Sequence record: EF517063.1
Length of the DNA: 499 bases
Strand: one strand, 5' to 3'
Origin: a phage
Part shown: positions 1-499 of the stretch, piece by piece
How positions within the stretch are numbered: position 1 is the stretch's first letter
How the letters are laid out: every line of letters begins with the position of its first letter
Made by a program: the position numbers and the translations under genes
The notes under the pieces: generated by a model
Seen by the model: the letters and a program-made list of their open reading frames with translations, nothing else
Databases searched by the model: none
Told to the model about the DNA's origin: nothing

Positions 1-2
1 TT

Positions 3-239
3 CAGGCAATCTTAGAGAAAGATATGCTGCATCTATGTAAGCAGGTCGGCTCAGGTGCGATTGTCCCCAATGGTAAACAGAAGGAAATGATTGTCTAGTT
101 TCTGACACACGGTATGGAAGGATTGATGACATTCGTAGTACGTACATCATTTCGTGAGGCCATTAAGGACATGCACGAAGAGTATGCAGATAAGGACTCT
201 TTCAAACAATCTCCTGCAACAGTACAAGAGGTGTTCTGA
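3..239 (+). CDS. 5.5: T7-like gene 5.5 protein (H-NS-binding host-takeover protein); 5' end lies outside the window; frame interrupted by an in-frame amber TAG at 96-98 (nonsense allele / possible pseudogene)
   Basis: Frame 3 translates as QAILEKDMLHLCKQVGSGAIVPNGKQKEMIV-[TAG]-FLTHGMEGLMTFVVRTSFREAIKDMHEEYADKDSFKQSPATVQEVF-[TGA 237-239]. I recognise this as T7 gp5.5 from memory. The 78 in-window codons plus about 21 missing N-terminal codons give the expected 99 aa, and L30 falls where the literature places it. The stop overlaps the next gene's ATG (TGATG). It is absent from the ORF track because the TAG splits it into pieces too short to be listed. Confidence 0.8.
96..98 (+). other. 5.5: In-frame amber (TAG) codon at codon 53 of gene 5.5
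   Basis: Read directly: att gtc TAG ttt ctg. The frame is open on both sides, from the window start to 95 and from 99 to the TGA at 237-239. Confidence 0.85.
226..231 (+). promoter_or_regulatory. Ribosome-binding site (Shine-Dalgarno) for gene 5.7
   Basis: AAGAGG sits 7 nt upstream of the ATG at 239, inside the 3' end of gene 5.5. Confidence 0.6.
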
Positions 240-448
240 TGTCTGACTACCTGAAAATGCTGCAAGCAATCAAAAGTTGCCCTAAGACTTTCCAGTCCAA
301 CTATGTACGGAACAATGCGAGCCTCGTAGCGGAGGCCGCTTCCCGTGGTCACATCTCGTGCCTGACTACTAGTGGACGTAACGGTGGCGCTTGGGAAATC
401 ACTGCTTCCGGTACTCGTTTTCTGAAACGAATGGGAGGATGTGTCTAA
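239..448 (+). CDS. 5.7: T7-like gene 5.7 protein, 69 aa (in T7, an inhibitor of sigma-S-containing host RNA polymerase)
   Basis: ORF-track ORF 239..448, MSDYLKMLQAIKSCPKTFQSNYVRNNASLVAEAASRGHISCLTTSGRNGGAWEITASGTRFLKRMGGCV, which I recognise as T7 gp5.7. ATG at 239-241 is preceded by the Shine-Dalgarno-like AAGAGG (226-231). It overlaps the 5.5 stop upstream and its TAA (446-448) overlaps the 5.9 ATG. Confidence 0.9.
   Translation: MSDYLKMLQAIKSCPKTFQSNYVRNNASLVAEAASRGHISCLTTSGRNGGAWEITASGTRFLKRMGGCV
433..439 (+). promoter_or_regulatory. Ribosome-binding site (Shine-Dalgarno) for gene 5.9
   Basis: GGGAGGA, with the GGAGG core at 434-438, lies 9 nt upstream of the ATG at 448, inside the 3' end of gene 5.7. 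Confidence 0.65.
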
Positions 449-499
449 TGTCTTGTGACCTTGTGACTATTCCACACGATGTGTGGAACGATATACAGA
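448..499 (+). CDS. 5.9: T7-like gene 5.9 protein (RecBCD inhibitor, DNA mimic); N-terminal 17 codons only, 3' end outside the window
   Basis: ATG 448-450 overlaps the 5.7 TAA (TAATG) and has GGAGG 9 nt upstream. Translation is MSCDLVTIPHDVWNDIQ..., closely resembling the T7 gp5.9 N-terminus as I recall it (MSRDLVTIPRDVWNDIQ...). The fragment is too short to appear in the ORF track. Confidence 0.75.
   Translation, partial: MSCDLVTIPHDVWNDIQ

Follow-up and report, generated by a model that had tools for sequence, protein, structure and literature searches.

The analysed DNA was a 499-bp stretch of the phage sequence record EF517063.1, hereafter called the window. In an ungapped base-by-base comparison, the window corresponded to positions 16912-17410 of phage T7 (V01146), with 490 of 499 bases identical and zero indels. 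The wild-type record AY264774 showed no difference from V01146 over 16912-17410 by BLAST. Wild-type T7 records were also the top matches in a BLAST search of 50,697 phage records, at 98.4% identity over window positions 1-498, and neither near nor distant BLAST searches of these 50,697 records returned a phage record closer to the window than wild-type T7. The nearest other species was YpsP-G, at 93.8% by BLAST. From this match, the window is assigned to the gene 5.5-5.7-5.9 segment of Escherichia phage T7 (Teseptimavirus T7).

Three genes lie on the + strand of the window in the order known from T7, as delimited by the V01146 annotation and by translation, together with the alignment for gene 5.5 and the list of open reading frames for gene 5.7. 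The 3' part of gene 5.5 (1..239) comprises codons 22-99 and the stop codon at 237-239, and its product is annotated in V01146 as an H-NS-binding protein required for growth on lambda lysogens. Gene 5.7 is present as a whole (239..448) and retains an intact 69-codon reading frame with one amino acid replacement, V7M, and one silent change. The 5' part of gene 5.9 (448..499), which encodes the RecBCD inhibitor, comprises codons 1-17 and base 1 of codon 18. The overlapping stop/start junctions between these genes are intact, namely ATGA at 238-241 and TAATG at 446-450. The list of open reading frames also contained a short frame that terminates at a TAG at 96-98, upstream of the intact 5.7.

Exactly nine mismatches to V01146 were found over the 499 bases in the ungapped comparison, and all are given here on the + strand. 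Within gene 5.5, C>T at 96 converts codon 53 from CAG (Gln) to the amber codon TAG (Q53*), C>T at 101 is silent (F54, TTC to TTT), and a tandem GG>AA at 226..227 changes codon 96 from CGG (Arg) to CAA (Gln) at R96. Within gene 5.7, G>A at 257 changes codon 7 from GTG (Val) to ATG (Met), and C>T at 418 is silent (R60, CGC to CGT). Gene 5.9 carries C>T at 454 (codon 3, CGT to TGT, R3C), G>A at 476 (codon 10, CGC to CAC, R10H), and G>A at 499, the first base of codon 18, where GGC (Gly) would become AGC (Ser). Position 499 is the final base of the window and was dropped from the BLAST alignments by end trimming; the change there was seen in the ungapped comparison, and T3 carries G at this position.

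The amber codon at 96-98 leaves only 52 of the 99 residues of gp5.5, and it likewise cuts short the 5.5-5.7 fusion protein that is annotated as possible. An in-frame ATG at 114-116 (gp5.5 Met59) lies five codons past the amber codon and opens a 41-codon reading frame to the usual 5.5 stop (114-239); an obvious Shine-Dalgarno sequence was not seen upstream of it. Reinitiation at this ATG, which would yield a C-terminal fragment of gp5.5, is only a formal possibility. The tandem change at 226-227 shortens a purine-rich stretch from GGGAGGT to GAGGT, 6 nt 5' of the gene 5.7 ATG. The GGGAGGT stretch, at 226-233, is likely the ribosome-binding site of gene 5.7, and its shortening could modestly reduce 5.7 translation.

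The original prediction had listed four transition-type codon differences from the T7 reference in this region. All four proved correct against V01146: TAG at 96-98 from CAG by C to T, Val to Met at gp5.7 codon 7 (the one trusted least), Arg to Cys at gp5.9 codon 3, and Arg to His at gp5.9 codon 10. The statement that only C-to-T and G-to-A changes occur was also borne out, with a correction to the count, which is nine and not four, since the changes at 101, 226, 227, 418 and 499 had been missed. Alignment to the reference revealed neither identity at these codons nor differences spread over all substitution classes, and the proposed cluster survived this comparison with nine of nine changes being G:C>A:T, distributed over both strands.

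The spectrum consisted of four C>T (96, 101, 418, and 454) and five G>A changes (226, 227, 257, 476, and 499) on the + strand, with no A:T>G:C change, no transversion and no indel. The 4:5 split was compared to the 110 C and 130 G of the window and showed no strand preference (binomial p = 1.0), a sample of nine that excludes only strong bias. To place these changes in the natural variation of the group, nine natural relatives with identities from 94% to about 77% were aligned (YpsP-G, vB_YpYeO9, NC-A, 3A_8767, PHB20, WX2, 04922B, CQ615, and T3). All nine relatives carried the T7 reference base at each of the nine sites that they cover, including C at position 96, and an in-frame 5.5 amber codon was absent from all nine. 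This agreement shows that the reference bases are ancestral, and that the nine states of the window are derived and private.

The relatives' own differences from T7 in the window belonged to all classes, with 8-30% G:C>A:T and many A:T>G:C changes and transversions. With the pooled G:C>A:T share of 24% in eight Teseptimavirus relatives, the probability of nine of nine changes in this class is about 3e-6. A divergent natural relative of T7, or a recombinant with one, had been among the origins first proposed for these differences. The only point in its favour is that the window is not identical to T7. The best match among the 50,697 phage records is wild-type T7 itself, no variant is shared with the natural relatives, and the bases, the spectra and the missing amber codon of the nine relatives all contradict it, so that a natural origin of this kind is scarcely conceivable.

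More than 100 laboratory T7 records differed from the reference by 0-1 base in the same stretch by BLAST, compared to nine in the window, which upholds the earlier claim of a density above that of a typical laboratory mutant. MZ375282 (T7_250S), MZ318362 and OL964741 have one private difference each in the stretch, and the one in T7_250S is an A:T>G:C change. The MZ3752xx genomes, which presumably come from a heat-adaptation study of T7, are wild type in the window's stretch. These records show that the ordinary laboratory background of T7 is 0-1 change per 499 bp. The substitution cluster is real, directional and far denser than usual laboratory drift.

The variants were further searched as exact 25-29-mers spanning the changed sites. 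None was found in the viral, metagenome and genome contig collections, and a wild-type 29-mer used as control returned T7 and NC-A. The exact variant product of gp5.7 gave no match in the protein-position index. The result of the k-mer search would suit a sequence with no biological lineage, whether produced by template damage (cytosines deaminated by heating or ageing) when one molecule alone was read or coverage was very low, or composed as an in silico or synthetic variant. Sequence context as flat as the background and coding effects matching random placement would agree with such an origin, and heating is cited in a passage of PMC8923235 as raising G:C>A:T changes in phage DNA. However, 3.75% of the G:C pairs are changed, which is far beyond the damage generally known from ordinary libraries, and only about 10 substitutions per genome became fixed in T7 adapted to heat (PMC8923235). 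An artefact is also not needed, as real T7 lines reach an equal or higher local density (12 differences for isolate K in the window's stretch). We consider an artefactual source unlikely, though it keeps some weight.

The coding effects of the changes were compared to the random expectation. The window contains 240 G:C positions, and G:C>A:T changes at these positions would be silent in 33%, missense in 61% and nonsense in 5.4% of cases. The nine observed sites comprised three silent, five missense and one nonsense change, and nine random hits would include one or more stops with a probability of 0.39. The coding effects look like unselected accumulation and equal the random expectation. This agrees with genes that T7 can do without on standard hosts and disagrees with designed edits.

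Deliberate editing, which had also been put forward, would take the form of a knock-out of 5.5 by a cytosine base editor with bystander edits. CAG>TAG is a classic base-editor stop design, the changes at 96 and 101 are both + strand C>T and lie 5 nt apart, and the CGG at 110-112 could serve as a PAM for SpCas9. However, with this PAM, C95, which has a TC context and lies in the usual editing window, would have remained unedited while C101 at protospacer position 12 was edited. Only one of the nine changes makes a stop and three sites are silent, an effect mix that follows random expectation, and the changes are spread over 400 bp and both strands, so that at least six guides would be needed, with no design logic. 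Editing is therefore regarded as very improbable.

Public genomes of mutagenised T7 provided a direct reference for this pattern. The records comprised the wild type (AY264774) and the isolates K (AY264775), K115 (AY264776), P (AY264777), and P82 (AY264778), and each isolate was aligned to AY264774. The K and P lines of Bull and colleagues were reportedly propagated in nitrosoguanidine with bottlenecks. The four genomes differed from AY264774 by 285-412 substitutions per genome, or 8-11 per kb, and 90-94% of these were G:C>A:T; at such shares, the probability of nine of nine changes in this class is 0.40-0.60. C>T and G>A were about equally frequent (191:196 in K and 146:123 in P), with no strand bias. 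The wild-type record AY264774 is linked to Bull et al. 2003 (PMC2680503).

In the window's 499-bp stretch, K had 12 differences (10 G:C>A:T and two N) and P had five. K averages 2.0% of G:C pairs changed genome-wide, its count in this stretch is more than 2-fold its mean, and about 12% of its 499-bp windows contain at least nine differences. Adjacent mutated pairs in the K and P lines occurred about as often as expected at random. Nine hits placed randomly on the G:C positions of the window would include two neighbours with a probability of 0.12; the tandem GG>AA is unexceptional. Isolate K carries stops in 5.7 (W52*) and 5.9 (W13*) (AY264775 16306-16673). K115, a descendant of K, has deleted about 16850-17486 of the wild type and thereby lost 5.5, 5.7, and most of 5.9 (AY264776 14854-15236). 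The 5.5-5.7-5.9 block is repeatedly inactivated or lost in mutagenised T7 lines.

Descent of the window from K/K115 or P/P82 was considered and rejected. Position 101 is the only one of the nine sites that is also changed in a public mutagenised line, namely isolate K. The window thus carries one of the 10 called K sites and none of the five P sites, and one common site is consistent with chance, for which about 0.36 shared sites are expected from nine and 10 hits on 240 sites. Isolate P (AY264777) was less like the window than the wild type is by BLAST. P and P82 share G>A at window position 372, where K has N. The K-family and P-family genomes have 22-23 substitutions in common, of 285-412, which could reflect a short shared stem before the split or parallel hits at hot spots. 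Both families also have an early-region deletion that takes in gene 0.7. As judged from the distribution of the changed sites, the window is an independent lineage, or at least none of the isolates K, K115, P, and P82.

The sequence context of the changes was analyzed with regard to the agent. MNNG is known to act preferentially on a G that follows a purine. In the K and P lines, a purine preceded the mutated G at 81% of 670 distinct G:C>A:T sites compared to 51% in the genome background, and T at this position was depleted to 8%. This 5'-purine pattern is a clean context signature of the alkylation type that is recoverable from public records. In the window, a purine preceded the mutated G at five of nine sites (P = 0.07 for five or fewer at an expectation of 0.81; nine events only), and a likelihood ratio based on the four-base frequencies at this position was about 2:1 for no context preference over the K/P pattern. 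The bases 5' of the mutated C were C, T, C, C, A, G, T, G, and C, with no TC, CC or WRC motif, at the low power of n = 9. Nine events cannot identify the agent among alkylating agents (MNNG, EMS), hydroxylamine and a cytosine deaminase.

Several other sources were considered and set aside. Deamination hot spots at Dcm sites (CCWGG) do not apply, as 96 (CCAGT) and 101 (CCTGA) are not Dcm sites. Nitrous acid, base analogues and error-prone PCR are known to yield A:T>G:C changes or transversions as well, and bisulfite mutagenesis of one strand does not fit the hits on both strands. Hydroxylamine appears in a T7 kinase paper as a TMT quench only. Springman et al. 2010 (nitrosoguanidine; Genetics 184:221) and Bull et al. 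2013 (hydroxylamine) are said to have sequenced populations and not to have deposited clone genomes. A heat-adaptation study of T7 with an amber suppressor was considered as a source of the TAG, and its genomes fix about 10 substitutions (PMC8923235).

Enzymatic cytosine deamination in vivo would proceed through C>U>T on exposed single strands of phage grown in cells expressing a deaminase that acts on cytosines in DNA, whether or not uracil-glycosylase is inhibited as well. The enzyme could come, for example, from a mutagenesis plasmid (PmCDA1/UGI), from a fusion of a deaminase to the RNA polymerase or the DNA polymerase of T7, or from a bacterium that encodes one naturally. Enzymatic deamination fits the exclusive G:C>A:T spectrum, the missing 5'-purine bias suits an agent directed at cytosine slightly better than MNNG, and adjacent changes such as the minus-strand CC>TT at 226-227 would be in keeping with a processive enzyme. 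All T7 transcription has the + strand as its non-template strand, and this strand would also be the lagging-strand template to the right of the T7 primary origin. For these two reasons, an excess of C>T on the + strand would be expected from a single-strand deaminase. The observed 4:5 split opposes this, with a probability of four or fewer in nine of 0.049 at 75% + strand bias and 0.0009 at 90%, and the nine events show no dinucleotide or WRC motif at the mutated C. Engineered T7 hypermutation systems with deaminase-polymerase fusions exist (PMC13236587), but the published T7 system also installs A:T>G:C, works at a rate of about 4e-5 per base, and was weak with PmCDA1 as the fused deaminase. 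Altogether, we judge a deaminase rather unlikely, with a small chance remaining to it.

The best explanation is probably a laboratory T7 lineage that went through many rounds of exposure of its DNA to an agent producing G:C>A:T transitions alone. The likeliest agents would be an alkylator of guanine O6 (MNNG or EMS) or hydroxylamine. Hits would have built up on both strands under purifying selection that was weak or absent, since 5.5, 5.7, and 5.9 are dispensable on ordinary laboratory hosts. GC>AT changes are dominant after nitrosoguanidine or hydroxylamine mutagenesis of T7 (PMC6042481). Among the origins named in the original prediction, chemical mutagenesis of the hydroxylamine type holds in that a G:C>A:T-specific mutagen is best supported by the K/P spectrum, the strand balance and the density; hydroxylamine itself does not follow, as nine events are too few for it. 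Cytosine-deamination damage is compatible with the nine events in class, and the strand split and absent motif speak against a single-strand deaminase. The natural relative is refuted by the alignments, and deliberate editing is disfavoured by the mix of effects.

The dose under repeated mutagenesis of a laboratory lineage was estimated from the changed fraction. The changed share of 3.75% (nine of 240 G:C pairs) would amount to about 725 hits per genome for neutral sites if it applied to all 19,329 G:C pairs of T7. The published T7 rates are about four viable mutations per genome per infection for phage grown with MNNG, and up to eight per genome per hydroxylamine treatment (PMC6042481). At these rates, 725 hits would take about 180 infection cycles at about four per cycle, or about 90 hydroxylamine treatments at eight. 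The real genome-wide figure would be below about 725, because essential genes purge hits. These estimates suggest a long history of mutation accumulation and not one mutagenesis step or a single mutant hunt. The nine changes are observed, as are their class, strand balance, derived polarity and neutral-looking coding effects, and a mutagen as their cause, how many rounds there were and a laboratory source are inferred.

The main value of the result lies in annotation and quality control. The source would be marked as a heavily mutagenised laboratory T7, as distinct from natural variants and from wild-type stocks. The amber codon inactivates gene 5.5, and the missense changes in gp5.7 and gp5.9 are passengers. 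The sequence would mislead if it were taken as 'T7' or used for inference of natural variation or selection. The full genome, if it exists, would be an independent mutation-accumulation line beside the few that have been sequenced (K, K115, P, and P82) and useful for studies of mutational spectrum and mutation load. The window is a fresh instance of a well-known laboratory phenomenon, with no new biological feature or question.

The window was finally compared to known systems of dense, directional mutation. APOBEC3G retroviral hypermutation, MutaT7, MP6, and deaminase-T7 DNAP fusions (PMC13236587) produce, like the window, dense changes limited to C>T and G>A. However, APOBEC3G-type and deaminase mutators leave strong strand asymmetry and dinucleotide motifs, unlike the 4:5 split and the motif-free context seen here. 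A related idea is that the window is the scar of an anti-phage defence by a host-encoded DNA cytosine deaminase in a viable T7, as a bacterial analogue of APOBEC3G retroviral hypermutation. Neither the restriction to G:C>A:T nor the tandem CC>TT would conflict with it, but strand bias and dinucleotide motif are both missing and chemically mutagenised T7 lines look like the window, which makes such a scar extremely unlikely.

T7 populations under lethal mutagenesis with nitrosoguanidine or hydroxylamine (PMC6042481) resemble the window in GC>AT dominance, and they gain several mutations per genome per cycle, adding up to hundreds. The K, K115, P, and P82 isolates are like the window in being the same phage on the same wild-type backbone, with G:C>A:T dominance and no strand bias. 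They show about 1% change genome-wide and 1-2.4% in the window's stretch, and their dispensable 5.5-5.9 block is knocked out by stops or deletion, as 5.5 is by the amber codon in the window. Differences were seen as well: the density in the window, 18 per kb, exceeds the genome means of 8-11 per kb, and a 5'-purine bias at mutated G, clear in the K and P lines (81%), does not stand out among the nine sites of the window (5/9). Since the spectrum, strand balance, local density, and dispensable-gene knock-out match those of the K and P lines, the window has precedent in viable T7 genomes.
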